Positions 1 to 27,210 of a DNA stretch of 64,000 nucleotides are shown one piece after another. The stretch is from Bacillota bacterium (GTDB lineage Bacteria > Bacillota > Clostridia > Oscillospirales > Oscillospiraceae). Location of the stretch: contig JAEWRY010000028.1 in NCBI GenBank assembly GCA_023459875.1, positions 1 through 64,000 of the forward strand, in the 5' to 3' direction. Below the pieces are notes generated by a model. That model was given only the letters and a program-made list of their open reading frames with translations. It did not search any database and was not told where the DNA came from. Numbering within the stretch: position 1 is the stretch's first letter; the number at the start of each line of letters is the position of its first letter. The position numbers and the translations under genes were made by a program.

Positions 1-165
1 CTCCGGGGGGGGGGGGGGGCGCTTTTTGGCTTCGCCGCGCCGCCCCAGCGCCGGGATAAGGGCCAGAACCGAAAGTACCGCCCGCCCCGGGTGTCCGCCG
101 GTGGCAAAAAGGAAGAAAAAAACCACAAGTCCCACGCAGACCAGATTCCAGAGGGCGAAGATCAT
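1..165 (-). CDS. Partial ORF running off the window start; small hydrophobic membrane protein (MIFALWNLVCVGLVVFFFLF...).
   Basis: ATG at 165 (minus), 3 codons after the stop of the upstream gene. Hydrophobic N-terminus. The 3' part crosses a 16-nt poly-G tract (5..20), giving a poly-Pro run, so the sequence there may be unreliable. Weak RBS. Confidence 0.25.
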   Translation of the reverse strand, partial: MIFALWNLVCVGLVVFFFLFATGGHPGRAVLSVLALIPALGRRGEAKKRPPPPPE

Positions 166-192
166 ATCGGAGTGGTCTGCTGCTTCCTTTTT

Positions 193-570
193 TAAAGAGA
201 GCTCCTTTTCCAGATACCGGCCGGCGGCGGGAGGAAGGCTCCGTCCGGCGCCAAGCAGGTTTCTCGCCGCCGCCAGGGTCCCGGGCACCGCCGGCTGGGA
301 CAGGGAATAGTTACGGCTCAGGGCGGCGGCGAGGCCCAGATAGCCCTCCGGGTCCTCGGGACGCAGGTCCCGCAGCTCCCGGTACAGACCCTCCGCCTCG
401 GTCCACCGCCTTGCCAGGAGAAAGGCGCGGCCCCGGGCGGACTTTTGTTCCCAGAGCAGATCGTCCTGGGGAAGGTATCCCCCCGCCGGAGCGCCGCAGC
501 GGGCGCATTCCAGGCGTCCGTTGCGGCGGCGCAGGACGGTGCTTCCGCAGGCTTGACAGGTGTAGGGCAT
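193..570 (-). CDS. Zn-ribbon (CxxC-x17-CxxC) N-terminus plus TPR-like helical protein, 125 aa (MPYTCQACGSTVLRRRNGRLECARCG...). NOT present in the supplied ORF track.
   Basis: Hand translation of the minus strand: ATG at 570 preceded by AAAGGAGGAAG (spacing 7), open to TAA at 193-195. Two CxxC pairs are seen directly. Sits immediately after the stop of the 600..1073 gene. Confidence 0.5.
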
Positions 571-599
571 AGAGCTTCCTCCTTTCTCCGGGAAAAAGT

Positions 600-1073
600 T
601 CAGGGACGGTGGGGGGCGCGGGGCGATTCGGGCTCCGTAAAGGGTCCGCGCCGGGTTTCGGCGGAATCGGGGCCTGATTTTTTGTCCGCAAAGGGGTTGG
701 TCCGGCAGTCAACGCGGGGTACGGGGCGCACCACGTGAAAGGCCGTCACCACCGCCAGAGCCATGGAAACAAGCAGGATTGCCGAGAGAAAAAGGGCGGT
801 GCGCACGGTGACGGCAAAGAGGGAAAGCCCCAGGCAGAGCAGTGCGGCAAAAAGACCGGCTCCCCAACCCACAGCCGCTGCGCTGAGGCCGCTTACCGCG
901 TCCCGGCGGGCGGCGGCGAAGAGGCAGACCGCAGAGGCGCCCAGTATAAAGAGATTGGAGGCTACCCACAGCAGACACTGGGCGGGGCCGGGAGCGCCGC
1001 CCAGCAGAAAAGCGAAAGTCAGATTCATGAGAATAAGAACAAGGGCGCAGAGGATGAATTTTACCGGCTTCAT
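600..1073 (-). CDS. Polytopic small membrane protein (about 4 TM), 157 aa.
   Basis: Internal ATG of ORF 600..1205 with AAAGGAGTG RBS (spacing 7) gives MKPVKFILCALVLILMNL... Four hydrophobic stretches. Begins 6 nt after the stop of the SPFH gene. Confidence 0.6.
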   Translation of the reverse strand: MKPVKFILCALVLILMNLTFAFLLGGAPGPAQCLLWVASNLFILGASAVCLFAAARRDAVSGLSAAAVGWGAGLFAALLCLGLSLFAVTVRTALFLSAILLVSMALAVVTAFHVVRPVPRVDCRTNPFADKKSGPDSAETRRGPFTEPESPRAPHRP

Positions 1074-1078: not shown

Positions 1079-2188
1079 TCACTCCTTTTTTGGTTCGCGT
1101 TTGGGCGGACAGGAAGGACCGGGGACCCGTGGAGGACCGCCCTTGGACGGTCCGGACGGACGGGTGGAATCGGAAGGCGGCTCCCAGTCGGAAGGACCTT
1201 CCCAATGGACGGGACTGCTCCGGGAAGAATATTCATAGGGAGGTTCGCTCCGGTCGGGGGGCGTGCTGTGATCTCCACCGCCGAAGAAGTCGCAGGCTTC
1301 CCGCTCCAGTTCCCGGGTCTGGGGGAGGAGGGAGCGGCTCATCTGCTGGCCGAAGCTGAACGCCATGGGAAAGGCGGCGATGCCCGCCGCCGCTCCGGCC
1401 GCCCCGCTGCGCGAGCTATTCAGGAGAGCCTCCGACACCACCCGGCGGGCCATGCTGCCGCCGTAGAGGGCGTTCAGCTCGTCGCGCATGTTTTCCAGTT
1501 CCGTCTTTTTGCGCATACGGCTCTCCCGCAACTCTTGCAGCAGTGAGATTTCCTCCGGGCGTGGTTTCAGGTCGGCCATGCGCAGATCGGAGAGAGCCAC
1601 CCCGTACCCGGCCAGGGCGGCGGCCAGATCGTTTCTTAAAAGAGCCGAAAGCTCTCCGGTGAGCAGGGAGAGCTCCGCCGCCTGCCTGCCCGCCAACGCG
1701 GCGGAGAGCCGTGACTGGGCGGTCTGGCGGATGACGCCGGAGAAATACTGCTCGAAGGTCTCGCTCTCCAGATTGTCCCAGCCGGACACCGTCTGGAGGA
1801 GCCGCCGGCCGTCGATGACGCGCAGGTAGAGCGACAGCTCGGCGCTCAGGTGGAAGAGATAGCCCCCGTCCATGGAGGAGAGCAGCTCGCCGGTGGAGGA
1901 CTGGACCAGGGACTCGGCATCCAGATTGACGAACCATACCTGGGCCTGCACCGGCAGCACCCCGCCCGTCATCATGGTCTGGAGCCGGCGGAAGAAGGGG
2001 CTTACGCCGGTGGTGAGGTTATAGCTTCCCGGCGGGTATTCTCCGCTCCAGGCGCCGTTCAGGAGAAAATAGGCCCGCCAGCCGGGCGGGACGAAGAGCC
2101 TGGTCCCGTCGGCAAAGGCGGTCACCGCGGCTCTGGAAACAAGCTTGCCCGCGCCAGGGGCGGGCTGAAGCACCGAAATGGGGATCAT
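1079..2188 (-). CDS. SPFH/band-7 (stomatin/flotillin-like) domain protein with a Pro/Ser-rich disordered C-terminal tail.
   Basis: ORF 1079..2218 trimmed to the ATG at 2188 (AGGAGG RBS, spacing 8). N-terminal domain resembles SPFH (Band_7_1, YqiK-like) proteins. C-terminal ~70 aa is low-complexity and P/S/E-rich. Confidence 0.65.
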   Translation of the reverse strand: MIPISVLQPAPGAGKLVSRAAVTAFADGTRLFVPPGWRAYFLLNGAWSGEYPPGSYNLTTGVSPFFRRLQTMMTGGVLPVQAQVWFVNLDAESLVQSSTGELLSSMDGGYLFHLSAELSLYLRVIDGRRLLQTVSGWDNLESETFEQYFSGVIRQTAQSRLSAALAGRQAAELSLLTGELSALLRNDLAAALAGYGVALSDLRMADLKPRPEEISLLQELRESRMRKKTELENMRDELNALYGGSMARRVVSEALLNSSRSGAAGAAAGIAAFPMAFSFGQQMSRSLLPQTRELEREACDFFGGGDHSTPPDRSEPPYEYSSRSSPVHWEGPSDWEPPSDSTRPSGPSKGGPPRVPGPSCPPKREPKKE

Positions 2189-2205
2189 TGTTTCGCGCCT
2201 CCTTT

Positions 2206-2250
2206 CTGATGATTTCATACTATCAAAAACCGTCTCTAGATTCTTCAGGG
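2206..2250 (-). promoter_or_regulatory. Promoter-motif copy C upstream of the SPFH/membrane/ZnR-TPR block.
   Basis: Minus strand reads CTGAAGA-atc-TAGAGA-cggtttttga-TAGTAT-gaa-ATCATCAG-aaaGGAGG. Overlaps the 3' end of the transglutaminase-like ORF. Confidence 0.5.
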
Positions 2251-2957
2251 TACCTGGGCGTGTGGTCCCTGGACATTTTCTCGGGAGTGAGGTTAAAGTA
2301 CCGGCGGCTGGAGAGGCCCATGAACCTTCGCAGCGGACCTGTCTGTCCCCCGTCCCAGGTCACGTCCACCATTCGCGGCTCCCCGCCGAGCTCCACCAGG
2401 TTCCAGGCGTGGCCCTCCCCTCCGGCGAAGCCCCTCACCACGGCGCAGGGGATGCCGCTCCGGCGGCAGAGCAGGGCGAAGGCCTTGCTGTAGCCCTCGC
2501 AGAGAGCCTCGCACTCCAACAGGGCGGCAGCCGCTGTGGCGGGATAGTAGCCGGCTCCGTCCCGGTAAGAGACATAGCCCGCCAGGGCGTCGTGCAAAAT
2601 GAGCTCGCGCTTCTCCGGGTTCGCTTCCCGCATGGCGAGCTTTGTGATGCGCTCCACCCGCCCCTCCAGCGCCCGGCCTACAGACGAGCGCCCGGACGGA
2701 GTAAAGAGGTAGTTGGGGATTAACCGGAAGGTGTTGGGGCCCTCCGCATGGCGGTAGCTGCACAGGTCGGCCCAGAAAAGCCCCGGGCAGTCGAAGCGCA
2801 GGGCCAGCATGGCGGCGTTCAGATCGCCGGCCCGCCCGGGGCCGCCGTCCGGGGGAAGGGGAATTTTTCCGCTCATGGAGAAAAGCCCGCCTCTGATGAG
2901 GCGGTAATAGAACTTGCCTCGAGGGGTGAGGCTGCCATAATAGAGACGCTCCAGCAT
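2223..2957 (-). CDS. Transglutaminase-like superfamily cysteine protease.
   Basis: Cys-His-Asp core visible: ...GIPCAVVRGFAGGEGHAWNLVEL...MVDVTWDG. AGGAGGA RBS, spacing 4. Confidence 0.7.
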   Translation of the reverse strand: MLERLYYGSLTPRGKFYYRLIRGGLFSMSGKIPLPPDGGPGRAGDLNAAMLALRFDCPGLFWADLCSYRHAEGPNTFRLIPNYLFTPSGRSSVGRALEGRVERITKLAMREANPEKRELILHDALAGYVSYRDGAGYYPATAAAALLECEALCEGYSKAFALLCRRSGIPCAVVRGFAGGEGHAWNLVELGGEPRMVDVTWDGGQTGPLRRFMGLSSRRYFNLTPEKMSRDHTPRYPEESRDGF

Positions 2958-2966
2958 AGCGTCCTC

Positions 2967-3695
2967 CTACTGCGTATCCCGGCGGAGGGTGAAGGTGCCC
3001 CGGCGGTGGCCCAGGGTCCACTCCCCGGCCCAGACCCGTTTTGACTTTTTCAGTTTCGGCAGGGCGCAGCGCCAGACGGAAGCCTCCTCCTGTCCTGGGC
3101 CGCACCAGGCCTTGATGACGCTTGTGTGGGGATTTGAGATGAGGGTGGTCCACGCGTTGTTCCGGCAGGCCCGGCTGTGGGCCAGCTGATCCGTCCCGCT
3201 CATGAAGACGCCCAGGTCTCCGGGGTGGGTGTGGGCCATGGAGGTAACCAGCCACGCGGGCCCATACTGGTCGCAGAAGGGATTGAGGGAGTGGGGATCG
3301 TCCCGATAGCGCAGTTGCTCCCGGTTGAGATCGGCAAGGCTCTCGGAGGCGCGGCTTGCCATGACCGAGGTGCGCTCGGGGCACTGGATACTCTGGAAGA
3401 AGCTCTGGACGTGATAATGATACTCCCCGTCCTCCAGCAGCAGCCCCAGGCCCCGCAGCCTCTGTTCGTCCCGGTTCATGGGGTGGATAAGGCCCCAGTG
3501 CAAAATGGCTGCGTACTCCTCCCAGCCTTGAGGTGTGAAGAGAATCACATGTTTACCCGATCCCTCCCCGAGACATTCCGGCTCCGCCCCCGGCCACCGA
3601 GTACGGATGAGGTCCATGAGGGCGGCGCCGCTATCAATGTGCTGGTAGAGGGGGGGAAGGGGGCCCCGCATGGGGAGACGTTTGTTCTTTTCCAT
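2967..3695 (-). CDS. JAB/MPN (JAMM)-like metallopeptidase, candidate deubiquitinase/Ubl-processing peptidase.
   Basis: Motif MAHTHPGDLGVFMSGTDQ is H-x-H-x8-S-x2-D, i.e. the JAMM Zn site with one extra residue in the spacer. AAGGAGGA RBS, spacing 6. Lies directly downstream of the E2-like gene. Confidence 0.55.
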   Translation of the reverse strand: MEKNKRLPMRGPLPPLYQHIDSGAALMDLIRTRWPGAEPECLGEGSGKHVILFTPQGWEEYAAILHWGLIHPMNRDEQRLRGLGLLLEDGEYHYHVQSFFQSIQCPERTSVMASRASESLADLNREQLRYRDDPHSLNPFCDQYGPAWLVTSMAHTHPGDLGVFMSGTDQLAHSRACRNNAWTTLISNPHTSVIKAWCGPGQEEASVWRCALPKLKKSKRVWAGEWTLGHRRGTFTLRRDTQ

Positions 3696-3707
3696 AGCCG
3701 GTCCTCC

Positions 3708-4295
3708 TTAATGAATCCGCCCGGGTACGCGCCCGGGAGCGCGTGCCGCCGCACGCATTCCGGTACTGCCGGGGCTTCTGGAAGAGCCCGCCTTGGGGAT
3801 AAGGGTGTAAATGAGGTGCGGCGGCAGCAGAGGCAGGGAGAAGCGGCGGCATACGGCGGGGTAGACCGCCTTGATTTTTTTGTTGGCCGCGTCATTGGGA
3901 TTTACGGCGGAGTCGTCCAGAATGCACTCCAAAAGCAGCTTGCGCAGCAGATCGGTGATGGAGGTATCGCTGTAAAAATTGCCGATACAGGCCTGGCCGC
4001 TCTCGAAAATGTTGGGGCTGAAGGGGCGGCGGCTCGGATCGGGGAAGGCGACCAGAGGCTTGCCGCCCAGAGGGAACCCGGTTGGGAGCCAAAACTCCAG
4101 GTACGCCCCCTTGGACATGCGCACCCCCGCGGGGTCCTCGGGGCTTCCTACTAGAATGGGGATGCCCGCCTCCACGGAGATATGGTCGCCGCTTATCATC
4201 TTGACGCGCAGCGCTCCGCCCGCGCGCCCGTCCAGAGCCAGTAAAGCGTCCGTCTGGCGCTTTTTCGCAGCGAGATTGGCTTCAAATTCCGTCAT
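3708..4295 (-). CDS. UBC-fold E2-like ubiquitin-conjugating enzyme homolog (BilB/bacterial-E2-like).
   Basis: Active-site signature FSPNIFESGQACIGNFY matches the UBC HPN-x(5-7)-G-x-IC-L pattern, with SPN in place of HPN and a catalytic Cys. Its ATG overlaps the E1 stop (ATGA). AAGGAG RBS, spacing 7. Confidence 0.6.
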   Translation of the reverse strand: MTEFEANLAAKKRQTDALLALDGRAGGALRVKMISGDHISVEAGIPILVGSPEDPAGVRMSKGAYLEFWLPTGFPLGGKPLVAFPDPSRRPFSPNIFESGQACIGNFYSDTSITDLLRKLLLECILDDSAVNPNDAANKKIKAVYPAVCRRFSLPLLPPHLIYTLIPKAGSSRSPGSTGMRAAARAPGRVPGRIH

Positions 4296-5521
4296 GATAA
4301 CCACTCCTTATCATCGCCCGAGTGCAGTTCGGACTCGTCGTTTGCGCAGCAGAAGCAGGTGAGGCCCCGTTCGTTCTCAGCGTAGAGGAAGTCCCCAACT
4401 CCGAAGCCCAGCCGGAAGAGGGAGAGGTTCAGAAGCTTGGGGTCTGATGATGTCGTGAGGAAGGCGCACAGCTCGGGCAGGGGCAGCTCCAGGCGTTCCA
4501 GCCTGGCGGGGGAGCCAGACGAAGCACAGGCGCGGCAGAGAAGGTTTTTTTCCACTACCCGGCGGGCGGGGGCCATCGGTTCGAGGGGAGCCCCGCAGGC
4601 ACGGCAATAATCCCGAAGCAGAAAGGGGGAGCCGGGCGGCAGATGGAGGCGTGTGGGACCCATTTTGCGCTCGATGCGCGAGAGCGCTTCGCCCGCTGTG
4701 AGAGAAAAGACCGAGGAGCCTTCCAGCGTCAGCAGCTTCACCGGGGGCGTGAGGGGGCAGGCCTTGCAGTCCCGGGTCTTGGTGAGGGGGGCGCTGCGAA
4801 ACTCCAGGGTCCGGCCGCTGAGCCAAAAGCGGCGGTTGAGGCACCAGCGCTCTCCGCGCAGGTCAGCCAGCAGCAGGTAAATTCCCGCCGTCACCGACGC
4901 CGTCCCCGCCAGCACGCTGGTCTGAACCTGAAGGGAGGAAGTATCCGTTCCGTAAGAAACCCCGCAGCGGCGGCGGTGTTCGGCGTCTTCACCCTCCAAC
5001 TCGCCCAGGTAACATTCAAGGCAGGAGTCCTCCCCGTCCAGCAGGGCGGCGGAGGAGAGCTCTTCCATGGTGCCCAGGAGAATAAGGCGGGGCCGCCGGC
5101 GGCCCGGCAGGAGCGGTATCTGCTTCCACAGGCGGTTTATCCAGAGCTTGGCGGCGTAGTTGTCCACGCCCACGAAGAGGTAGTCGAACCCCGCCAGGGC
5201 GGAGGGACCCAGGTCCTGCACCAGACCCCTGATGCCGGTGACCTCTCCGGAGGGCATCAGTTCCCGGAGCCTCCGGGCGGCTGCGGGGGCCTTATAGTCC
5301 CCCACGTCGGCGCCGGTGTAGAGGGCGGATTTGGCCAGGTTGCGGGCCTCCAGGCGGTCGGGGTCGATGAGGGTGAGGTGCTCCGCGCCCGACTGAACCA
5401 GCAGGGAGCACAGCAGGGAGCCAAGGGAGCCCGCCCCCACCGACAGAATGCGCAGGGCGCGCATCTCCTCCAGGGGCACTGAGAGCTTTGCGGGGTCGAG
5501 AATCATTTTTTGGCTCTTCAT
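4292..5521 (-). CDS. E1-like ThiF/MoeB-family adenylyltransferase with an extra Cys-rich (multi-CxxC) C-terminal domain.
   Basis: Rossmann GxGxxG: RILSVGAGSLGSLLCSLLVQSGAEHLTLIDPDRLEARNLAKSALY. C-terminal ~200 aa carries CLEC, CKAC, CRAC, CRAC and CFCC pairs. GAGGAGG RBS, spacing 7. Confidence 0.85.
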   Translation of the reverse strand: MKSQKMILDPAKLSVPLEEMRALRILSVGAGSLGSLLCSLLVQSGAEHLTLIDPDRLEARNLAKSALYTGADVGDYKAPAAARRLRELMPSGEVTGIRGLVQDLGPSALAGFDYLFVGVDNYAAKLWINRLWKQIPLLPGRRRPRLILLGTMEELSSAALLDGEDSCLECYLGELEGEDAEHRRRCGVSYGTDTSSLQVQTSVLAGTASVTAGIYLLLADLRGERWCLNRRFWLSGRTLEFRSAPLTKTRDCKACPLTPPVKLLTLEGSSVFSLTAGEALSRIERKMGPTRLHLPPGSPFLLRDYCRACGAPLEPMAPARRVVEKNLLCRACASSGSPARLERLELPLPELCAFLTTSSDPKLLNLSLFRLGFGVGDFLYAENERGLTCFCCANDESELHSGDDKEWLS

Positions 5522-5533
5522 AAAGCCGCCTCC

Positions 5534-5917
5534 TCAATGGATTTTCACATGGGGATGAAACCGGTACTGGCAGCGGGTGCAGAAGTACTCTCCCCCGCCA
5601 GCCCTGCGGATCACGCGGCGGTTTTGCGCGGTGTTGCGGCAGCCCAGAACCGGGCAGACGGGAAACCGCAGCTCGGGCGGCAGCGCGGCCCCGGAAACGG
5701 GCAGGCGGGTGGGTAAGGCGCGCGCGCTCGGGCAAGGGGAGGTGGGGACTGCGGTACTGCGGGTCACGGCCGGGGAAGCGTGTCCCGAAGCGGGATGGGG
5801 CGAGCGGGGCGGGTGGTCGGGGCGTCTTCCGCGCCCGAACCGTTTTCGCAGGAAACCCAGGAGCGCGGCGGCCGCCGTGCCCGCGCAGAAGACGCATATC
5901 AGCAGGTGCCACGCCAT
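5534..5917 (-). CDS. Small protein: N-terminal TM helix, Pro/Ser-rich linker, C-terminal zinc ribbon (CPVLGC...CTRC).
   Basis: Strong RBS AGAGGAGGAG, spacing 6. Hydrophobic N-terminus MAWHLLICVFCAGTAAAALLGFL and two CxxC pairs at the C-terminus. Sits between the Ubl candidate and the E1. Confidence 0.5.
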   Translation of the reverse strand: MAWHLLICVFCAGTAAAALLGFLRKRFGRGRRPDHPPRSPHPASGHASPAVTRSTAVPTSPCPSARALPTRLPVSGAALPPELRFPVCPVLGCRNTAQNRRVIRRAGGGEYFCTRCQYRFHPHVKIH

Positions 5918-5935
5918 GGAAGCTCCTCCTCTTTT

Positions 5936-6337
5936 TTAGCTGACCGCACCCGCGCCGGTGTCGTTGTCAATGAGCAGCCGGTCGCCCTTTTGTATGCCCA
6001 TGTCCTCCACGGTGACGTTCAGGGCGCTTTTTACCGACAGAGGCTTCTCCCCGCGCACCACGCAGCAGGTGAACTTCTCCTTGGCCCGATTCCCGGCGAG
6101 TTCCTCCTCGGTGATGAGACCCAGGTTGCGGAGAATCTGACCGAAGGTGTTTTCGGGGTAAACGTAGTAAGGCTCCTCCACCGCGCTGCCTTCCACCGAA
6201 AACTGCACGCTGATGTGGATGGCGTCCGGGTCCTCCCGGGAAAGGGACGCGCTATCTTCCCCGGCGGCTGTGTAGGCCTTCGTATCCTCCGGGGTCATGA
6301 TGCTGGAAAGCTCGTCGTTGTAATCACTGGTTTTCAT
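5936..6337 (-). CDS. Candidate ubiquitin-like (beta-grasp) protein with an acidic N-terminal extension; 133 aa.
   Basis: First gene after promoter copy B. AAGGAGG RBS, spacing 8. A ~90-aa C-terminal region alternates hydrophobic strands (HISVQFSV..., ...IQKGDRLLI) and ends ...DNDTGAGAVS, Gly-containing but not GG-terminal. Position directly upstream of E1/E2/JAB. The fold is inferred, not demonstrated. Confidence 0.4.
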   Translation of the reverse strand: MKTSDYNDELSSIMTPEDTKAYTAAGEDSASLSREDPDAIHISVQFSVEGSAVEEPYYVYPENTFGQILRNLGLITEEELAGNRAKEKFTCCVVRGEKPLSVKSALNVTVEDMGIQKGDRLLIDNDTGAGAVS

Positions 6338-6432: not shown

Positions 6433-7086
6433 TCACGCGTAAAACTCCGCCATGTCCTCCAGACGCAGGCAGGCCAGGCGGCGGCCGGGAAGCTCCAGAT
6501 GTCCGCAGCCGCAGTCGATGCCCACGGCCCCCGCGCCCCGCCAGACGCGCCAGTGACCGTCCAAAAGCCGCGGGGAGTAGAGCCAGGTGGGCGTGTGGCC
6601 GAAGATAACCGCCTCCTGTCCCGTAAGGCGGCAGCCAGCGTCCGCCTCAAAGCGTCCCCAGAGCCGCAGATAGGGGTCATCCGAGGGCATCCCGTGCACC
6701 AGATGAAACGTTTTATCCCCCACCCTCAGATGAAGCGCATCGGGCAGCGCCCCAAGATGCGCGAGCAGCTCTTTCCTCTTTCCGGGCGGCAGGGTCAGAA
6801 ACCGGCACAGGGTCTGCTCGCCGCCGTTATTGGCCCACTTGGTGAGGGCCGTGGCGGGGTAGCCAGGCATCAGCGCCTCCAGCATCATCTGCTCGTGGTT
6901 TCCCCGGAGCAGAACAGCGCCGGACAGGGCAAGCACGTCCTGCAAAAGCTCGATGGATTCCGGCCCACGGTCGATCACGTCGCCGAGGATATAAAGCCGG
7001 TCGCGGGTCCCAAAGCTTACCGCCTCCAAAACGGCGTGAAACCGGTCCCGCTCTCCGTGGGGGTCCGAAAGGCAATAGGTGCTCAT
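6433..7086 (-). CDS. PPP-family (PP2A/ApaH-like) Ser/Thr metallophosphatase.
   Basis: Calcineurin-like motifs DPHGE...GDVIDRG...GNHE. GGGAAGGA RBS, spacing 5. Confidence 0.85.
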   Translation of the reverse strand: MSTYCLSDPHGERDRFHAVLEAVSFGTRDRLYILGDVIDRGPESIELLQDVLALSGAVLLRGNHEQMMLEALMPGYPATALTKWANNGGEQTLCRFLTLPPGKRKELLAHLGALPDALHLRVGDKTFHLVHGMPSDDPYLRLWGRFEADAGCRLTGQEAVIFGHTPTWLYSPRLLDGHWRVWRGAGAVGIDCGCGHLELPGRRLACLRLEDMAEFYA

Positions 7087-7108: not shown

Positions 7109-8278
7109 TCAGAAGCCGATGGCGCTCCGGGTAAGCCGGTCCCGGCACCGCAGGCTTCCCTCCAGCTCCCGCTGGGTGAGGGTGACGCAGCCGCCGCCCT
7201 TCACATGGCTGAGGTACCCGGCGCTCACCATGTCTTCAATGAGGGTCTGGTAGGGCCTCACGCTGCGCACCCCCTGGCGGTAGAGCCGGTCGGTGAGCTG
7301 CTCCACCACGCCGGGGGCAAAGGAGACGGCCGAGCCGCAGCCGAAGCGGGCCATGGCCTCGGGAATGGTGTGGCGGCGCAGGATCTGGGAAATCTGCTCC
7401 CGGTCGCAGGCTGGGAAGCTGATGACGTCGCACCGGTCCAGGAGAGGCTCGCTCACGCAGTTCAGGTCGTTGGCCGTAAGCACCTTGGGACAGTAAAGGG
7501 CGTTAATGGGAAAGCCCAGGAAGTGATCGGTAAAGCCCAAGGCCGATTCGTCGGTGAGATCGAGAAGATCGTTTTGCAGGTCTCCACCCATAGGGGTGCG
7601 CTCCGGAATTTTATCCACCTCGTCAAAGAGCAGCTCCGGACTGCCGCAGCGGGTGAGGCACATGCCCTCCGCCACCGCGCCGGGTCCCGAGTTTACCACC
7701 GAATTGGGCTCTCCCCCCAGGCCGCGCCCCCGGGCGGCCCTGGGGGCGTTAATGTAGTGGCAGGGAAGTCCCAGCATAAGCGCGAAGGTCCTGGCCGCCC
7801 TGGTTTTGCCGCAGCCCGGAATCCCCGTGAGCAGAATGGGACGGGTCATGCCCGTGCAGGCGTGTTCGGCCGCGTGGAGCAGCAGCTTGTCATAGACCTC
7901 GTCCAGCCCGCACATTTCCCGTTCCCAGACAGAGCGGCAGTACTCGACGAAAGCGCCGTCGGCGGGTCCCGTTTCTGCGGCCCACTGGGGCAAGTCCCGG
8001 ATGGCGGCTACCCACCTGCGCAGATGGCCGCTGCCGCTGCGCAGAGCCGCGCGGTACTGCTCCTCCACCATGGGGGGCATTTCATAGATTTTCCGACCGC
8101 CGGGCTTTTTCCCGCCGTTTTGGGGCAGGGGACGAAGGGGAGAAAGCCGCGGCTCAATTTCCTCGTCCTCTATTTCGTCTTCTTCCCCCTCGGGGATCAG
8201 CAGCTCAAGGAGCTGCCGGAGCGATAATTTTCCGAGCATTCTCAGAACCTCCTCCTTGCGCGCGTCTTCTCGCTGCAT
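7109..8278 (-). CDS. AAA+ ATPase with an acidic N-terminal region.
   Basis: Walker A ILLTGIPGCGKT and Walker B LLFDEVDK. AGGAGGTG RBS, spacing 5. Confidence 0.8.
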   Translation of the reverse strand: MQREDARKEEVLRMLGKLSLRQLLELLIPEGEEDEIEDEEIEPRLSPLRPLPQNGGKKPGGRKIYEMPPMVEEQYRAALRSGSGHLRRWVAAIRDLPQWAAETGPADGAFVEYCRSVWEREMCGLDEVYDKLLLHAAEHACTGMTRPILLTGIPGCGKTRAARTFALMLGLPCHYINAPRAARGRGLGGEPNSVVNSGPGAVAEGMCLTRCGSPELLFDEVDKIPERTPMGGDLQNDLLDLTDESALGFTDHFLGFPINALYCPKVLTANDLNCVSEPLLDRCDVISFPACDREQISQILRRHTIPEAMARFGCGSAVSFAPGVVEQLTDRLYRQGVRSVRPYQTLIEDMVSAGYLSHVKGGGCVTLTQRELEGSLRCRDRLTRSAIGF

Positions 8279-8310: not shown

Positions 8311-9108
8311 TCAGACCGCCGCATCCCCGTTTTTCCTTTCGGACAAAGCCTTTCCGCCGTCTTCTCCCCAGGGTTCCTCGGTGGCATTCTCCCCGCCCTC
8401 AACAAGACGAACCGGCCCGGCGAATCGTTCGGCGGCAAGCCTGGCCAGAAGCCGTCTGGCGCGGTCAAAGCCGTCGCTCCCGTCCGGCTCGGTCTCGCAC
8501 TCGGCTATTGAGATTGCTTCGGCCTGAGGTTCCTCGTCGGCGGGAAAACCGTCATCACCGTCTTCCTCCTCAGCCTCTTCCAAAAGGGCCATTTTCTCCT
8601 CGTACTCGTGCTCCCGGTTCATCCGCCTGATCTCCGCCCTGATTTCCGCGACGCTTTTGGGCTTGCAGGGGGGCTCGCCGTGGGTGACGCGCTCCAGATT
8701 TTCAAAGTGGATTATGAGATGCATGACCATGCGGGATTCCAGCTCGCTGAAGTTTTCAGCCGAAATTGGGCCTCCCGAGAGGCTCTGGGCGTAATAGAGA
8801 TAGACGCGGCCGGTCTCCGAGCGCAGGAACTTGAAAATCATGTTCGCGTCGTTGATGGGGGAGACGTAAGCGTCGAAGGCGCGCTGGTAGCACTTATCGC
8901 AGGTGATGCCGGGGGCGATCTCGATCATCGCCACCCGGGCGCGTTGGTTCACGATGAACTTAATATAATAGGTATGGCCATAGGAAATGGTCTCCACCAA
9001 AAATCCGTCCCGCTCGGCGAAAAGCTCACCCTTGCAGTTGTAAGCACTGTGCGAAACGTATTCCTTCAGACCGGTTAGGGTTTCCATAGCGTAGCTGCGT
9101 TCGTTCAT
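8311..9108 (-). CDS. Hypothetical protein: possibly YbjN/T3SS-chaperone-like N-terminal domain, highly acidic C-terminal tail.
   Basis: GAAGGAGACG RBS, spacing 6. First gene after promoter copy A. N-terminal ~150 aa globular, C-terminal ~100 aa rich in E/D. The YbjN-like assignment is a weak inference. Confidence 0.45.
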   Translation of the reverse strand: MNERSYAMETLTGLKEYVSHSAYNCKGELFAERDGFLVETISYGHTYYIKFIVNQRARVAMIEIAPGITCDKCYQRAFDAYVSPINDANMIFKFLRSETGRVYLYYAQSLSGGPISAENFSELESRMVMHLIIHFENLERVTHGEPPCKPKSVAEIRAEIRRMNREHEYEEKMALLEEAEEEDGDDGFPADEEPQAEAISIAECETEPDGSDGFDRARRLLARLAAERFAGPVRLVEGGENATEEPWGEDGGKALSERKNGDAAV

Positions 9109-9192: not shown

Positions 9193-9231
9193 CAAAAAAA
9201 TCCGCGGTACGATGAAAATCGTACCGCGGAT
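9193..9231 (-). terminator. Intrinsic terminator after the 511-aa gene.
   Basis: Perfect 14-bp stem ATCCGCGGTACGAT / ATCGTACCGCGGAT with a GAAA loop, followed on the minus strand by TTTTTTT. Confidence 0.75.
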
Positions 9232-9247: not shown

Positions 9248-10783
9248 TTATAGAAAGTCCCGGTGCCAGGCGCCGTCGGAGAGCTTCAGGCAGGGGAAGG
9301 AGATGCCCTCGTCGGCGATGCGCTCCACGAAGGCCTCCAAAAAGCAACCTTTTCCCTCCCGGCCCGGGCAGTCCAGCAGGGCAGACATCAATGCGTCGTC
9401 AGCGTTGTGTGGATCGAGGGGGGAGAAGCCCGCGCGGATGAGCATTCCGTCCAGCCGGGCAGCCGAGAGGCCCTCTCCCTGGGGGGAGGGATCGGCCAGG
9501 AAGACCAGCATCCTCACAAGAACGGGCCGGGAAATGGGGAGAAAACCGCTCACCAGCTGCTGGATTTTGTCCCGGCTGAAGCCCCGGGCAGAAAAACCCA
9601 GCGCGCCGTCCCCCGACGAACCATCTTCACCGCCACGTCCGGGTTTTCCTCGGCCTTGCGGGGCCTCAAAGACGCCGCACAGGAAGAATTCCAGCGCATC
9701 CTCTCGGATGCCGCTGTAGGTGAGCCGGAGCAGGTCGATATGTGCCGGCGTGAGGGCGGCTGTCCTGTCCCGGTACTGGGAAAGAGCCCCCAGGGTGAGA
9801 TACTCCGTCGGTTGAGGGCCGCGGAAAAGGGCAAGCCCCTCCGACAGGGCTTCCGGCGGGGCTTCGTCCGGCTTTCCAAAGACCCAAAGGGGGGCAAGAA
9901 GGTCGGAGATAAGACTCCGGTCGTAATCAGCGGGCCGGTTCAGCAGTCCGTCCCGCCGGGAAAGAGCCTTGTCCCGCCGGGAGAGAAAACCGGAAATCTG
10001 CCGGTCGACCTCTCGGAGAAGGGCGCGGCACAGGTAGATCCTCGCCCGCTCCCTGGCACCCGAGAAGTAGAGCGCCGCTTCTTTGCTCTCCAGGTACGCC
10101 CGAAAGACCTCCGGAGAGCCCCGGAGGCGGCTCACCGTGTCGTGGGCGTCACTGGTGAGGTCCAGGGTGATCTCCGGTGTGCCGGGCTGTCTGCTTTCGG
10201 TTACGAAACGGCGCAGCTGCCAGAGATATTCGATCATGCCGCCGGAAACGCCGGGCCTGTATCCGTCGCAGACCGGCTTCAGCTCCGACTGCCAGCGGAA
10301 GAGGTCCATGCCGTTATTGAGGGCGAAGATGACGCTGGCATCCTCCACCGAGCGGGCGTAGAGCCGGTCGTACCCCGTAAAGCGCAGCAGCTCGTTGGCT
10401 CCCTTCTCGTCCCGCCCCAGAGCGAAGGCCAGGGCGATGACCGCCCGCCGCTCCGAGGCGCAGTCCAGCCCCGCCTGATCGGCGAGGACCCCGCGTTCCA
10501 AGCTGCGCTCCAGGTAGCGGGCCGCCCGCTCCCGGCCACTCCCCTGGGAGAGCGTGTCCCCCACGTAGGCGGATACCATTTCGGCGTACCGCTCGTCCCG
10601 GGTCCAGTTGCACAGGAGCTTGGTTAGCTTCTTGCGGCGGCGGGAGTTCATATTCTCGGGCTTGGTGAGGTTCAGGGGACGGCAGAGATCGGGATCCAGG
10701 CTGTACCAGTACTCCTGCTTGTCGAAGAAACGGCTTATGTAGCGGTCGGCGAAGCCGGCGCCGGAAAGTTGGGGCTCGGGCAT
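9248..10783 (-). CDS. Hypothetical protein, 511 aa, no recognisable domain.
   Basis: ORF 9248..11077 trimmed to the ATG at 10783 with AAGGAGG RBS (spacing 6), 13 nt after the stop of the giant kinase-NACHT gene. Followed by an intrinsic terminator. Confidence 0.6.
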   Translation of the reverse strand: MPEPQLSGAGFADRYISRFFDKQEYWYSLDPDLCRPLNLTKPENMNSRRRKKLTKLLCNWTRDERYAEMVSAYVGDTLSQGSGRERAARYLERSLERGVLADQAGLDCASERRAVIALAFALGRDEKGANELLRFTGYDRLYARSVEDASVIFALNNGMDLFRWQSELKPVCDGYRPGVSGGMIEYLWQLRRFVTESRQPGTPEITLDLTSDAHDTVSRLRGSPEVFRAYLESKEAALYFSGARERARIYLCRALLREVDRQISGFLSRRDKALSRRDGLLNRPADYDRSLISDLLAPLWVFGKPDEAPPEALSEGLALFRGPQPTEYLTLGALSQYRDRTAALTPAHIDLLRLTYSGIREDALEFFLCGVFEAPQGRGKPGRGGEDGSSGDGALGFSARGFSRDKIQQLVSGFLPISRPVLVRMLVFLADPSPQGEGLSAARLDGMLIRAGFSPLDPHNADDALMSALLDCPGREGKGCFLEAFVERIADEGISFPCLKLSDGAWHRDFL

Positions 10784-10796: not shown

Positions 10797-13700
10797 TCAG
10801 TCTCCGAACACGGCGCCGCAGCGGCGGAAAAATTCCAGGTCCCACGGGGTGGGCTCGGGCATGATGCCGCGCATGGAAGCGCCCGACACCTCCAGGCGCT
10901 CCATTTGCGCCAGGGGCGAAGCGTCCACAAAGACCGCGGCGGAAGGGGATGGGGAGCCCAGTCGCCGGAGCGCGAAGGCCTTTTTGGAACGTTTCTCCGT
11001 CTTGCGATAGTACTGCGCGTGTTCGGAAGCAGTTGTTTGTGGGTCGGAGAGATCGATGGGGGAATCGAGCAGCACAATGGTGCGGTTGTTTATCTGCCGC
11101 AGGTCGGCGACGGCCATGGCGTCGTACCGCTCCAGCACCTGTCCGTCAGACAGGCTAACCTCCAGGGTGAGCCAGGCGTCGAAGAAGGAGAGCAAAACGG
11201 TATCTCCGCTCAGAAGGAAGACTCGAAGGCTGCTCCCCCTTCTGTTTCTTGGGCATTTGAGCTGTCCTATTTTGAGAAGGCGCGGATCAGTAGCAACCCG
11301 GGCGGCAAGGAGGGGGGCGGTGTCCACGGGAACGGCTGTGCCGGCGCTCAGGGCAATGCGGCAGAGACCCGCTCTGGCGGGAAGTTCCTCTCCGCTTGTC
11401 AGTCTTCTAGCGAAATTATAAATAAAGGAGCAGGCGGTGTCTCCCAGAAAACCCAGATCGGCCTCGGCCAGGAGGAGCTTCTTTTTGCTGCCCTTTTCGG
11501 AGCTTCCCGCGTCGGGGAACGGATCGAACCGGCACAGGGGAATTCCCGGCTCCCCCGGAGTTCCCCGCGTCACCACGGCGGTATCCGGGTCGGGAAGGCT
11601 TAGGGTGAGCAGAACGCCGTCCCCGGTGAGAACGGCGGGCCAGCCGCCGTAGAGCCTCCGGTTGACCTGCGCAGCGTCTTGCCCCGCGAGATCGGTGAGA
11701 TATTCCATGCCGGGAAAGTCCACGCCAAAGATCAGGTTGTTTTCCAGGCGCCGTCCAGGGCCGATCCAGTGCTTCAGCGTGCCCAGCACCTTACCGACGG
11801 CGGTCGGCGCGTCGATGGCGGCGGACTCTTCCAAACACCAGATTCTTCCGTCCGCCGTCACGGGGCGCGCCTGACCTACCTCATCCAGAAACAACATCTG
11901 CACCCGGTGGCTGCGGAAGACGATCTGTGAAGTGAGAAGTCCGCTTTTTGTGCTGTATTCTTCCAGACCGTCCGCGCTGAGCATGGCAATGCGGTCGGCG
12001 CTGCGGGAATAGACCGCGCCCAGATAACCGCTTGCCTTCCTGCCTAACTGCCGGGGCTGCCCCCCGGCGGCATTTCCGCCCGCCGTCAGCTCACGAAAGC
12101 TGGAGCCCAGACGCTGGAGGACATAGCCGGGGCGGGAGGTCTTACCGCTTTTGAACTCCTCCAGTTGGGTGTAGTGGGAATGGTCTTTCGTTAATTCCAG
12201 ACGGGCGGAGAGGCTGCCGTCCTCCTCCTGAACGAGATAATACTGAAGAATCCTCATCTGTCTATGCTCACCCTCAAGCTGGACTCCCAGCCGTCCCTCC
12301 GGCTGGGGGACGGCACAGGTGAGCCGGAACCCTTGGGCGGTCTCTCCGTCGGGCGGACAAAACTCCAGGAGGCCTTCCCCCGTGCCCGCGTTTATGATGC
12401 ACACCGTGTTGTCCGAGAGGATCACCGCCAGCCATCCCTGCTCAGGCAGGAGAATGAAATGTACCAGCGCCGCGTCGCCGTGGGTTTCGGGCGAGACCGC
12501 CAGGCTGAACACAAGGCCCTCCTCCCACAAATCGAGACAGAAAAGGGTTTTCGTGTACGCCAGATAGAGAAAACGGCCGGAGGGCCCGTATTCCATTCTG
12601 CGATAACCGGAGTCGCCGGGCAGATCAAGTTCCCGCAAGTCGTCCAGCATCAGGAAGGCTCCGTCCAGTCTGGCACCGGATAGGGGCGCCGTGCGCAGCC
12701 GCGCCCGGGAGAGGTCCAGGCGGGACAGGTCTTCGCCCGCCAGGGTGCCGCGGCGGAGCAGCAGGGCCTCCGTCAGGTTGGCCGCCGCCGTGGCGAAACT
12801 GCCCCCCATGGCTCCCGCGTATTCCACGGCGTTAAAAAGGGTGAGTCGGGTGTGCTCCTTCCTATCCCCCAGGGTAAAACGCAGGGTTAAATTCTGCGCG
12901 GACAATACGGGCAGTAATGGAAAGACTGTTGAATCCGGAATTTCAAACGGAAGGTCGTCGGTCTCCAGGAGTTCGTCCAGATCATCCGCCGTCAGAGGCC
13001 TCTTACGATTAAGCGACATGTTGATGATCCAGATGAGATTGGAAAAGTTGATCCAATTCTCGCTTAAAAGTTCCAGGGCCTCGTTGCCGTAGCCAGCGAG
13101 GCTTTGACTGTTGATGGGATCGAAGAACCCACGAAGGCTCTCCAGCGCCCCGCGCAGAGACGCGCAGTCCTCCCCACACAGCTCTCCCAGCCGCAGGCAG
13201 ACCGCCCGGCTCAGGTGATAGCGGCCCAGTTCGCTTTTAAGGCTCTCCGGGCCGGAGTGGCGCAGGAGGGATTGGAGCAGCCCGTCGGCGCAGAAAATTT
13301 CCCGCATGCTGTCATGGGCCAAGGAATACCACCGGTCCTCCAGGCGCAAAAGGCCGGTGCCGAGCAGCATGTTCAGAACCCGGCCGTTGCGGAGGGAGGT
13401 CAGGCGCAGGTCGCCGTAAGGGTCGGCACTTTTTTGCCATTGAGGGTCGAGCAGCTGCTGTAATTCTTCCTTACTGTCGAAATATCCGAAGTCCAGGAGC
13501 ATTTTCTCCGCCGGGCGGAGCAGGCCGTCGGGGCTGTCCGCCAGCAGCAGGGATTCGACAGTTCTTACCCGGGCGATGTCTTTGTCGAAGGAGGCCAGCG
13601 AGCGCTCCTCCTCCCTGTCCTCTCCAAAGGCGGGATAGCCGTATTCCCGCAGCTCCATGGCGCTCTCCGGGAGGGTCATACGGTGGAAAAAGAAGTTGAG

Positions 13701-16110: not shown

Positions 16111-16773
16111 ATGAATTTGTCCACGTTTTTTGATTTGACTTACGGAATGTTCCTTTTGGGCAGCGTGAAGGACGGAAAGCCGACGGGCTGTATTGTCAAC
16201 ACGGCCGTCCAGATCTCCAGCAAACCGCCCCTTCTGTCGGTCAGCGTGAGCCACAACAACTATACGAACAGTGTGATCAAGGAGTCCGGGCTGGCCTCAG
16301 TGAATATTTTGGCCCAGGGCGTCTCCATGGACGTCATCCGGACCTTCGGGTTCCAATCCGGCCGGGACACGGACAAGTTCGCGGGTGTGCCTTATATCCA
16401 GACGCCCGATGGTTTGCCCGTTCTGGAAGACGGCATCTGCGGCTGGTTTGAGTGTAAGGTAAGGGATACTGTGGAGCTGCCGGACTACACGCTGTTTATT
16501 CTGGAAGTCTTTGAGTGCGACCGGTTGGGAGAGCGTGTGGCCCCTATGACTTACGCTTACTACCAGATGGTGAAGAAGGGCGGCGTGCCAAAGAACGCTC
16601 CCGCGCACACCCTGCCCGAGGAAGAGGGTGGCCGTGCCGCCGGGCCGAAATACGTTTGTTCCGTTTGCGGCTATGAGTACGACAATTCCCAGGGCCCCTT
16701 CGAGTTTCTTCCCCCCGATTGGAAGTGCCCCCGCTGCGGCGCCCCCAAGTCGGCCTTTGTCGTAAAAACCTGA
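16111..16773 (+). CDS. Flavin reductase-like (FMN-binding split barrel) domain fused to rubredoxin (high-molecular-weight rubredoxin type).
   Basis: AAAGGAGTG RBS. C-terminus carries CSVCGYEYD and CPRCGAPK, the canonical rubredoxin CxxCG pairs. Confidence 0.8.
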
Positions 16774-16871
16774 TGGGGCAGGCGGCCGCTCACAACAGAA
16801 GCAAATATATCAATTGAAAAGTCGTTCGCGTTTTTATAACTCATATCAGGCGAATCGCCGGCTTCAGCGAA

Positions 16872-16910
16872 AATCCTTAGAACCCGCAGGGTTCTAAGGA
16901 TTTTTTTATT
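16872..16910. terminator. Bidirectional intrinsic terminator between convergent genes.
   Basis: ATCCTTAGAACCC-gca-GGGTTCTAAGGAT stem, flanked by an A-run on the left and TTTTTTTATTT on the right. Confidence 0.7.
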
Positions 16911-16978
16911 TCGGGTCCGACGATATCGACAATGGCAATGCCGCACTAGCCTCATAATTTCAGGGATAACCGGCAACC

Positions 16979-17557
16979 CTACAAAACCGCCATCGTCACG
17001 GAGATGCCGGCCATGACAAGGGGTAAGATAATCAGCGGAACCATACCGTCGATATAACCCGCGGTTAGCTCCAGCCGGTAATACAGCACATAGCAGATCA
17101 GACTGATCACCGCCGCAAACCCGATCACAACGCTCAGAATGACTGCCGCTTTGAGCCCAAACCGGCCTGCCCCATAGAGCGCGTCGATCTCCGACATCTC
17201 CATCATGGCCCAGCCGACGATCAGGATCAGTTCCGTCGTCACCTGCCGCTTGAAGAATAAGCTGGTAACCGCCAGCAGGACGAAGTATGCGGCAATCCCG
17301 CCCCATAGGATGGAATTCGTCGGAAACAGCTTTGCCTCATGAGGAATGGCACGCATTCCCTTTACTGTCAGCACCACGGCGGCGATTCCCGCCGCCGTGG
17401 CCGCGGCAAGCAGCAGTCCGGTTTGAAGCCCCTTGGATGGCGTATTGGGGTGAAAGGCCACGATCCACCACGCGAGATAAAATAAGCAGCAGACCATGAG
17501 CAGAATATTTCCCCAAAACAGTTCCCAGGTATGTAGATTAAAATTCATAAACGACAT
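16979..17557 (-). CDS. Polytopic membrane protein, hypothetical.
   Basis: ORF 16979..17566. ATG at 17557. About 6 hydrophobic segments. Weak RBS. Confidence 0.5.
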   Translation of the reverse strand: MSFMNFNLHTWELFWGNILLMVCCLFYLAWWIVAFHPNTPSKGLQTGLLLAAATAAGIAAVVLTVKGMRAIPHEAKLFPTNSILWGGIAAYFVLLAVTSLFFKRQVTTELILIVGWAMMEMSEIDALYGAGRFGLKAAVILSVVIGFAAVISLICYVLYYRLELTAGYIDGMVPLIILPLVMAGISVTMAVL

Positions 17558-17755
17558 GTTTACCACCCTGCATTCAAACGTACAAACTAAATGGGTTATT
17601 AGGTTGTATGGATAACAAGCAGTTCACCGTTTATAACATTTTGCGAATAAAAAACATAATGGACAGCCGACGCCCATCATAATATTGGTACTTATCTTCT
17701 GTTTCGACATACTGAAAATCATAAACATGATGGGAAGTAATCTGATAAAAGTATA

Positions 17756-18667: not shown

Positions 18668-18680
18668 AATAGGGTCCTCC

Positions 18681-21184: not shown

Positions 21185-21213
21185 AACCCCGTACCGGGAG
21201 GCGGAGAGAAAAG

Positions 21214-22167: not shown

Positions 22168-22252
22168 GGGAGTGAGACCCAACCGGGGTGGGACGAAAAC
22201 CGGAAACCCCCAGGACTATCTGAAAACATAAAGGAATAAAGGAGGAAATCGT

Positions 22253-23428: not shown

Positions 23429-23503
23429 TTCCTTCCCTTATGCGCCGCCATCCGCACAAACCTCAGGGTGGTTCATTAATAAGATTTTTGAGGAGGTAAA
23501 GAA

Positions 23504-24598: not shown

Positions 24599-24689
24599 AC
24601 TGAAAACTTATAACACAGCGGAGCCCCCGGCCCCCCAGACCCCCCCCGCCGCCCCCGGATGGAGTACGGCGGGATTGGGAGGATCGCAG

Positions 24690-27199: not shown

Positions 27200-27210
27200 G
27201 GTGTGAAGAG

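Follow-up and report, generated by a model that had tools for sequence, protein, structure and literature searches.

Contig JAEWRY010000028.1 of an uncultured Bacillota bacterium carries, within the 64,000-nucleotide (nt) stretch that was analysed (the window), a six-gene cassette at positions 2223-6337 of the minus strand. With a probability of roughly 0.7, we consider this cassette a genuine ubiquitin-type conjugation module, which belongs to a rare, divergent clade of eukaryote- or archaea-like bacterial ubiquitin-like protein (Ubl) systems and forms part of a conserved island. Its genes run in the order Ubl-ZnR-E1-E2-JAB-TG, and gene order is kept in independent metagenomic contigs at protein identities of 30-45%; therefore, the cassette is not a chance arrangement. 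The six genes are as follows.

5936..6337, minus strand: Ubl precursor, 133 aa (N-terminal extension of about 38 aa, predicted beta-grasp domain and tail ...LLIDNDTGAG-AVS)
5534..5917, minus strand: membrane-anchored zinc-ribbon protein (ZnR), 127 aa (transmembrane (TM) helix and CPxxGC...CxxC)
4292..5521, minus strand: E1 activating enzyme, 409 aa (Pfam ThiF, 4e-27)
3708..4295, minus strand: E2 conjugating enzyme, 195 aa (family profile matches UBC E2s at 1e-11)
2967..3695, minus strand: Rpn11-like JAMM/MPN+ metallopeptidase (JAB), 242 aa (invariant motif residues and profile matches)
2223..2957, minus strand: transglutaminase-fold Cys enzyme (TG), 244 aa (Pfam Transglut_core, 8e-10)

A first-pass annotation of this DNA had described six co-directional, tightly packed genes forming a complete Ubl/E1/E2/JAMM cassette with two extras, and this description holds. 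All six open reading frames (ORFs) are found in the ORF list of the window at the positions and on the strand it had given, an independent gene caller returned the identical six genes on the source scaffold (L001, a 482-kb ENA metagenome scaffold), and the gaps within the cassette measure 18, 12, -4, 12, and 9 nt. The claimed ATGA overlap of the E1 stop with the E2 start can be read directly (...tta tcATGAcg gaa), and the motifs quoted for the E1 (GxGxxG and CxxC), the E2 (SPN...Cys), and the JAB peptidase (HTHx8SxxD) were all located. Domain tests support the four core activities together with the two extras, the TM zinc ribbon and the transglutaminase-fold Cys enzyme.

Enzymes and modifier of the cassette

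Homologs were drawn mainly from 36 metagenomic loci (L003-L038), retrieved with a five-sequence JAB alignment, and from five close loci (L039-L043). The E1 contains a single ThiF/Uba adenylation domain at residues 17-252, in which the nucleotide-binding loop (GAGSLG, residues 29-34) and the conserved Cys are present; CxxC motifs occur at 167, 252, 306, and 329, and behind the adenylation domain come a four-Cys zinc ribbon and, at the C-terminus, a domain of about 70 aa. In an alignment of the window E1 with ten homologs (11 sequences), the invariant residues are G29/G31/G34, D120-N121, C167/C170, R183-x-x-C186, C252, and C306/C309/C329/C332. The Cys-rich, 'poly-CxxC' C-terminal domain that the first-pass annotation had called unusual is indeed there, but it is not unusual: because its four Cys (C306/C309/C329/C332) are invariant across the wider family, the region represents a family-wide zinc ribbon. 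The candidate thioester Cys is C186, which sits in a short crossover loop. A search of the PDB with the E1 family profile returned Uba1 (2.5e-37), UBA3 (6e-36), and SAE2 (2.5e-34) ahead of ThiF (1e-26) and MoeB (4e-22), so that Uba1/NAE/SAE2 outscored ThiF and MoeB; the matches listed were eukaryotic and archaeal enzymes plus ThiF, MccB, MoeB, and TcdA. A contig scan with the E1 gave an irrelevant Dehalococcoidia ThiF as its sole match. At residues 337-409 of the E1 (window 4292-4513), a weak local likeness to the 'LGIxxGDxLxI' segment of the Ubl was observed (hhalign 5-16%), and this C-terminal domain may be a ubiquitin-fold domain for E2 recruitment.

The E2 consists of a UBC-type core and a basic disordered tail, with SPN at residues 93-95 (S93-P94-N95) and GQACIG at 100-105, in which Cys103 is the catalytic Cys. 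As a single sequence, it has no Pfam match, and a homologue search with it found two proteins only. A phmmer search of the PDB with the same sequence yielded 56 weak matches, nearly all of them UBC E2s, in whose alignment SPNIFESGQAC lies over HPNINSNGSIC, placing SPN on HPN and Cys on Cys. The family profile A3, built from the window E2 and 28 homologs from related loci with an iterative hidden Markov model (HMM) on ORFs of at most 215 aa from which JAB matches had been excluded, reached UBE2A/Rad6 at 1e-11 and matched 293 PDB sequences. Additionally, 20 of the 29 family members match Pfam UQ_con, the eukaryote-type family, and the ortholog in L043 has a weak precomputed UQ_con match. On these profiles, the protein is a UBC-type E2, in line with the first-pass call. 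SPN in place of HPN, which that annotation had also noted, is confined to the window clade (window, P0002, and L039-L043). Ubc6/UBE2J-type E2s carry TPN; hence, S/TPN does not disqualify a protein as an E2. Downstream of the catalytic Cys, the sequence reads C103-IGNFYSDTSITDLLRK, without Glu, His, and His at +6, +8, and +13.

The JAB peptidase carries the complete motif E77, H155-x-H157, S166, and D169 (HTHx8SxxD at 155-169). An exhaustive HMMER search of 1.84 billion representative proteins returned 69 relatives, four of them below 1e-30, and E77, H155, H157, S166, and D169 are invariant in 59 relatives. In the PDB, its profile matched the Caldiarchaeum Rpn11-like protein (6fjv, the top match), Rpn11/PSMD14, CSN5, AMSH, and BRCC36 at 1e-9 to 1e-3, and 17 family members match Prok-JAB and four match JAB in Pfam. 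The invariant motif and the Rpn11/CSN5/AMSH matches thus bear out the earlier proposal of a JAMM-like peptidase.

The single Ubl sequence matches no family in Pfam or NCBIfam, an hmmsearch with it across the related loci gave no relatives, and a profile of the window Ubl with close orthologs from syntenic loci (alignment A4) retrieved nothing ubiquitin-like from the PDB. Profile comparison connects A4 to an abundant 85-aa Ubl family (hhalign 82%, E 1e-5, 77 columns), with the window TGAG aligned on the invariant AG of that family. In the PDB, the profile of the 85-aa family in turn matches polyubiquitin, di-ubiquitin (2e-5), ubiquilin, and YukD. UniRef gives the name 'Ubiquitin-like domain-containing protein' to a relative with 90% identity or more, and a sequence search with the Ubl family returned the 'HPTDG...PATDAG' clade only. 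Pfam YukD is matched by 15 of 15 members of the 85-aa family; a reading of the Ubl as a type VII secretion system YukD was rejected, given the presence of E1, E2, and JAB genes and the lack of EssC or WXG100 genes.

The first-pass annotation had suggested a beta-grasp fold for the 133-aa protein, and modeling agrees. In MAFFT alignments, the N-terminal half of the window Ubl fell out of the hhalign register; a 13-member family subset reproducing that register was used as input. The resulting AlphaFold2 (AF2) model of residues 36-133 (predicted local distance difference test (pLDDT) score 79.6; predicted template modeling score (pTM) 0.71) shows a bb-a-bb-(a)-b topology, where a and b denote helices and strands, with a disordered tail into which G128 and G130 fall. 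Its best Foldseek match was 6fj7 from Caldiarchaeum, at 17% identity. Residues 1-38 (window 6223-6337) have the short motif NE[LFM]...[LIM][TN]P[IVE] in common with close orthologs, and this motif may be a docking peptide.

Processing of the precursor after G130 is suggested by the architecture of its relatives. Throughout the Ubl family, AG is invariant, and a variable tail of 0-19 residues comes after it. P0075 and P0076 are head-to-tail di-Ubls joined at ...PATDAG in the manner of polyubiquitin, whereas in P0186 and P0194, the Ubl domain continues after ...PATDAGG into a coiled or TM segment at the C-terminus; together, the di-Ubls and Ubl-TM fusions imply endoproteolytic release after AG. 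Comparable processing of Ubl precursors is attributed to archaeal Rpn11 in a passage of PMC6043591 and to BilC in a passage of PMC10557695.

ZnR comprises an N-terminal TM helix (residues 5-23), the basic stretch RKRFGRGRR, a linker rich in Pro, Ser, and Ala, and CPxxGC...CxxC at the C-terminus. No Pfam family covers it. Its position is kept in L039, L042, L043, and L040, and C88, C93, C113, and C116 are invariant in these orthologs, which confirms the TM and Zn-ribbon protein of the first-pass annotation. By the positive-inside rule, the zinc ribbon would be cytosolic. TG has an intact triad, C153 (LCEGY), H183 (GHAWN), and D198 (VDVT); C153 and H183 are invariant, and the Asp of DVT is present in every homolog covering that position. 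It has no signal peptide and is therefore probably cytoplasmic. TG adjoins JAB in L041, L040, L020, L023, L034, L035, L037, and L031, lies elsewhere in the locus in L016 and L024, and is missing from L039, L042, and L043, the closest full-length syntenic loci. The cysteine peptidase that had been described as an addition at this locus is thus real in its fold and triad but not special to the locus, being a variable accessory also found in human-gut loci. It probably serves as a second deconjugase or as a cross-linking or deamidating enzyme.

Relatives and comparison with known systems

Searches with the window E1, E2, and JAB retrieve loci of the type E1-Ubl-E2-JAB-ZF, where ZF denotes a zinc-finger protein. 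Annotation of all retrieved loci with HMMs distinguished four architectures. The commonest (A) is E1-Ubl-E2-JAB-ZF itself, whose ZF protein shows a sub-threshold Pfam Prok-RING_1 match in three of eight cases. Architecture B, from the human gut, reads AAA+-ClpP-E2-Ubl-E1-ZF-JAB-TG and continues with a putative PP2C-like protein and a putative Ser/Thr kinase, both called from sequence motifs only. One such locus (L020, 4371-16015; also L023, L034, L035, and L037) has a proteasome-pathway-like layout, with a RING-like ZF/TM gene between E1 and JAB. Architecture C (L016, 1-20477; L024, 1-13194) combines three or four E2, two to four Ubl, and three JAB genes with TraG-like ATPases and TG; some of its E2s lack the catalytic Cys and resemble ubiquitin E2 variants, giving the appearance of a more elaborate version of the system.

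Architecture D is the window clade, with about six known loci. In L039, L042, and L043 (about 30% identity), the order is p511-Ubl-ZnR-E1-E2-JAB-SPFH-p157-p232-HerA-like ATPase-WHH/colicin DNase, preceded on the upstream side by a giant kinase-domain protein; TraG-like, ClpP, and SprT-like genes lie downstream. In L040/L041, the closest relative, ZnR-E1-E2-JAB-TG comes after two Ubl genes, and the island is matched in part. The clade is marked by SPN for HPN in the E2 and by a membrane zinc ribbon where the wider family has the RING-like protein. No published description of this gene combination was found in our literature searches.

The wider E1-Ubl-E2-JAB-ZF family probably corresponds to the prokaryotic RING-type (tri-ligase) Ubl systems, an identity that draws on the sub-threshold Pfam matches. 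Burroughs, Iyer and Aravind (2011) are reportedly the source for such systems. PMC7159879 cites a computational description of 'eukaryote-like' Ubl systems from bacteria in which the E3 is of a prokaryotic RING type. Like the window, these systems have homologous E1, E2, JAB, and Ubl proteins (the Ubl link being the hhalign match above), a four-Cys zinc ribbon in the C-terminal region of the E1, and an AG C-terminus of the Ubl, and some of their loci include transglutaminase, AAA+, kinase, and phosphatase accessories. Unlike them, the window clade has no RING-like ZF gene and instead places the unrelated membrane ZnR between Ubl and E1; ZnR has four Cys only and shows no similarity to the RING-like ZF family (hhalign probability 0.5%). 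The window further differs in its E2 (SPN vs. HPN(W)), in the 38-aa N-terminal extension of its Ubl and the insertion after helix 1, and in its order Ubl-ZnR-E1-E2-JAB inside an SPFH/HerA-like/WHH island.

The ubiquitin operon of Caldiarchaeum subterraneum, which encodes Ub, E1, E2, a small RING E3, and Rpn11 according to passages of PMC5654768 and PMC6043591, offers a second comparison. Both loci have separate genes for a single-domain E1, a UBC-type E2, and an Rpn11-type deubiquitinase (DUB), and the Ubl precursor is processed in Caldiarchaeum as it would be in the window. In contrast to the window, the operon is archaeal, uses a RING-H2 E3, and includes neither a membrane zinc ribbon nor a transglutaminase nor an island with nuclease and ATPase; sequence identity is low.

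The surrounding island

The first-pass annotation overlooked that a larger conserved island extends to both sides of the cassette. The conserved 12-gene core of this island comprises the giant kinase, p511, Ubl, ZnR, E1, E2, JAB, SPFH, two membrane proteins, the HerA-like ATPase, and the WHH DNase, and its variable extras are the transglutaminase, an AAA+ ATPase, and a phosphatase. The features of the island around the cassette are listed below.

600..1073, minus strand: p157, multi-pass membrane protein and conserved neighbour (gene calls on L001)
1079..2218, minus strand: SPFH/Band-7 protein, directly downstream of the cassette (Pfam Band_7_1, 2.6e-12)
6433..7086, minus strand: PPP-family metallophosphatase, 217 aa, upstream and co-directional (Pfam Metallophos, 2.6e-12; NCBIfam Ser/Thr phosphatase, 1e-11)
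7109..8278, minus strand: AAA+ ATPase, 389 aa, Lon-like module without a protease domain (Pfam AAA, 1e-8; NCBIfam Lon, 3e-19)
8311..9108, minus strand: p265, first gene after the terminator (no match in Pfam, PADLOC, or NCBIfam)
9200..9231, minus strand: strong predicted intrinsic terminator, 14-bp stem and T-run, between p511 and p265
9248..10783, minus strand: p511, conserved neighbour (the gene immediately preceding Ubl in L039, L042, and L043 matches it weakly but consistently, at about 1e-8)
10797..15797, minus strand: giant Ser/Thr-kinase-domain protein, 1666 aa, at the island edge (Pfam Pkinase, 2.5e-8)

SPFH orthologs occupy the same position in L039, L042, and L043 (1e-56). Past p157 lies a block at L001 13223-17807, mostly beyond the window start, where a run of N marks a scaffold gap in L001; it encodes p232 (zinc ribbon, TPR, and TM; partly within window 1-1073), the HerA/FtsK-like P-loop ATPase p872 (872 aa; HerA-like below), and the WHH/colicin-DNase p242. 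In phmmer comparisons with L039, L042, and L043, p232 matched at 1e-28, p872 at 1e-150, and the WHH protein at 1e-47; the HerA-like and WHH assignments derive from Pfam and PADLOC matches.

On the other side of the cassette, p265, the Lon-like AAA+ ATPase, and the PPP phosphatase lie between p511 and the Ubl gene. A homolog of the AAA+ ATPase (about 1e-27) adjoins ClpP in the human-gut loci L020 and L023, whereas the PPP phosphatase was not found in the related loci by HMM annotation and is specific to the window locus. The terminator at 9231-9200 likely separates a kinase/p511 unit from an operon running from p265 to SPFH. In the giant protein, the kinase domain is followed by a Walker-A motif (GSGMRGKT) and repeats, giving it a STAND-like look; a giant Pkinase-match protein flanks L039, and Pkinase matches flank L042. 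Ordinary metabolism genes begin at about 16 kb, past the end of the kinase gene (15797), and LemA and DUF2207 genes follow the WHH gene in the L001 gene calls. Given these metabolic genes on one side and LemA/DUF2207 on the other, the island spans about 19 kb and is chromosomal.

Proposed mechanism and rival readings

In the mechanism that we propose, the 133-aa precursor would be trimmed after Gly130, between ...TGAG and AVS, most likely by the Rpn11-like JAMM peptidase. The single-domain E1 would then adenylate the exposed glycine, hold the Ubl as a thioester on Cys186, and hand it to Cys103 of the UBC-type E2, from which it would be attached to lysine residues of proteins located at the membrane or close to it. 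With its TM anchor and predicted cytosolic zinc ribbon, ZnR could, speculatively, act as an adaptor or E3-like factor or be the primary substrate, and p232, with its zinc ribbon, TPR, and TM segments, is a comparably speculative candidate for adaptor or substrate. The JAMM peptidase would also undo the modification, and the transglutaminase-fold enzyme might add an optional second conjugating, deconjugating, or cross-linking activity. The fixed linkage to SPFH, membrane proteins, the HerA-like ATPase, the WHH DNase, and the giant kinase points to a regulated conflict system in which a nuclease is the effector; the most plausible role would be that of a regulated conflict or defence system whose effector is the HerA-like ATPase with the DNase.

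A bolder version, which we regard as unlikely, is a membrane-tethered ubiquitination machine of eukaryote-type components (Uba-like E1, UBC E2 with S/TPN, Rpn11-like DUB, and ubiquitin-fold tag) that uses the TM zinc ribbon, and optionally the transglutaminase-fold enzyme, for a RING E3, is switched by the giant Ser/Thr kinase and the PPP phosphatase, and gates the HerA-like ATPase and WHH DNase and/or an AAA+/ClpP degradation route. If true, a gut Firmicute-like bacterium would possess a multi-layer immune or programmed-death pathway that has so far gone undescribed, with phosphorylation, ubiquitin-like tagging, and proteolysis or nuclease execution in one pathway.

Several observations weigh against a genuine ubiquitin-type module in a conserved island. 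The link of the window Ubl to the 85-aa family depends on the hhalign value of 82%, and the alignment behind the Ubl model was drawn from that same family, so the model is not fully independent of the homology claim; an AF2 model from the single E2 sequence reached a pLDDT of only 37. Close Ubl relatives end in ...DGDIA, ...DGPVA, or ...SGGNG, and the exact mature C-terminus is uncertain because these ends differ. In L020, the Ubl ends exactly at AG although the locus has both JAB and TG; TG is therefore not needed for Ubl maturation, at least there. No E3 was found, and no window protein matches Prok-RING or zf-RING in Pfam. PADLOC assigned no defence-system membership, with only generic kinase (PD-T4-6, mad6) and P-loop (mad8, HerA) matches, and no relatives were detected in 72,556 plasmids and 50,697 phages (tblastn with JAB) or in a scan of IMG/VR. 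Finally, no biochemical study of any bacterial member of this lineage was found in the searched literature.

The alternative that survives best, although itself unlikely, is an analogue of the ubiquitin-proteasome pathway, in which a Ubl tag would direct proteins to an AAA+ unfoldase, the Rpn11-like JAB would strip the tag, and a ClpP-type protease would degrade the substrate. This view is consistent with the Rpn11-like character of JAB, with the Lon-like AAA+ module lacking a protease domain two genes upstream of Ubl, and with the human-gut loci in which its homolog adjoins ClpP and E2-Ubl-E1-ZF-JAB-TG; ClpP also occurs in the L039, L042, and L043 islands. However, the co-occurrence is partial and covers few loci: the window island has no ClpP, and L039, L042, and L043 have ClpP but lack this particular AAA+ ATPase. 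Furthermore, the AAA+ protein showed no identifiable Ubl-binding domain.

We judge it improbable that the island is a mobile element or DNA-translocation apparatus whose components, or recipient proteins, are modified by the Ubl module. E1/E2/JAB operons do occur on integrative and conjugative elements and plasmids (PMC1779556), the 872-aa P-loop ATPase is HerA/FtsK-like, a TraG/VirD4-type coupling ATPase is found in L039, L042, and L043, an FtsK_gamma protein lies nearby in L039, and TraG-like ATPases recur in L016, L024, L026, and L027. Nevertheless, the window island contains no TraG, relaxase, integrase, or type IV secretion system genes and abuts metabolic genes, and the plasmid, phage, and IMG/VR searches found no relatives.

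The first-pass annotation had considered the cassette Bil/Bub-related, and a Bil- or Bub-type antiphage system that, like BilABCD, attaches its Ubl to structural proteins of phages would fit the four common activities (Ubl, E1, E2, and JAB) and the defence role made plausible by the island context. The E1 also gives partial matches to PADLOC CBASS 'E1-E2' and NCBIfam 6A-MBL cap2_3, confined to the adenylation domain. This relationship does not hold up, and we consider the reading highly improbable. The Bil E2 carries a CEHH motif, and the BilD E1 is built as IAD+AAD+CYS (PMC11354881). Like the window, Bil has four separate Ubl, E2, JAB, and E1 genes, its JAB pre-processes the Ubl, and conjugation is to lysines; in contrast, the window E2 is of the UQ_con type with SPN...C and without CEHH, and where BilD has inactive and active adenylation domains and a helical CYS insertion, the 409-aa window E1 has one Uba1/NAE-like ThiF domain, with only about 30 residues between C170 and T201 and no helical CYS insertion. 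The window JAB is likewise of the Rpn11 type.

Bub systems carry Ubl-E2, JAB-E1, or E2-E1 fusions and a DUF6527 serine protease (PMC11601603). Bub (type I/II; '6E'/DUF6527) resembles the window in its Ubl, E1, and E2 chemistry and in having an additional non-JAB peptidase, whereas the window has none of these fusions but separate genes and a transglutaminase-fold Cys enzyme; no DUF6527 match occurred among the scanned genes of the window and the L001 island. Type II cyclic oligonucleotide-based antiphage signaling systems (CBASS) share the E1 adenylation domain (PADLOC E1-E2, 3e-16, residues 14-175) and a JAB partner, whereas the window has no CD-NTase among the neighbours, no Cap2 E2-E1 fusion, and a dedicated Ubl. 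E2, JAB, and Ubl are matched by none of the PADLOC or NCBIfam models of defence systems. Moreover, the matches listed in PDB profile searches with E1, E2, and JAB included eukaryotic and archaeal enzymes, and Bil and Cap chains were absent from them.

A sulfur-carrier (MoaD/ThiS-MoeB/ThiF) biosynthetic operon, which the first-pass annotation had named as an outcome that would overturn its proposal, is effectively refuted: the E1 matches Pfam ThiF, but its NCBIfam ThiF/MoeB matches are all far under the cut-off (60 vs. 275 bits) and Uba1/NAE/SAE2 outscore ThiF/MoeB, no MoaE, ThiG, ThiH, or rhodanese genes lie nearby, and the cassette includes a UBC E2 and a JAMM isopeptidase.

Read as a ubiquitin-type conjugation module, the cassette matters because the experimentally studied forms of bacterial ubiquitination (CBASS Cap2, Bil, and Bub) rely on E2 and E1 proteins divergent from their eukaryotic counterparts, whereas in the window lineage, the E1, E2, DUB, and tag score best against Uba1/NAE, Rad6/UbcH5, Rpn11, and ubiquitin. 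The general class was predicted computationally long ago, and in the searched literature, the lineage is known from comparative genomics only. To this, the window clade adds a compact, separately encoded gene set suited to expression, a membrane zinc ribbon instead of a RING, and a fixed linkage to an SPFH protein, a HerA-like ATPase, a WHH DNase, and a giant kinase. It thus lets one ask what eukaryote-like Ubl systems do in bacteria, and whether kinase control, ubiquitin-like tagging, and execution by AAA+/protease or nuclease were already combined before eukaryotes. In the human-gut loci, where AAA+-ClpP stands beside E2-Ubl-E1-RING-JAB-TG, the idea of a 'proto-proteasome pathway' becomes directly testable.

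Outside the island, three ORFs at 17756-20995 (minus strand) belong to no Pfam family. They lie within the region 16111-29057 of the window, which also encodes a flavin reductase-rubredoxin fusion, a PfkB kinase, a GFO/IDH oxidoreductase, a sugar ABC transporter, and an MFS transporter.

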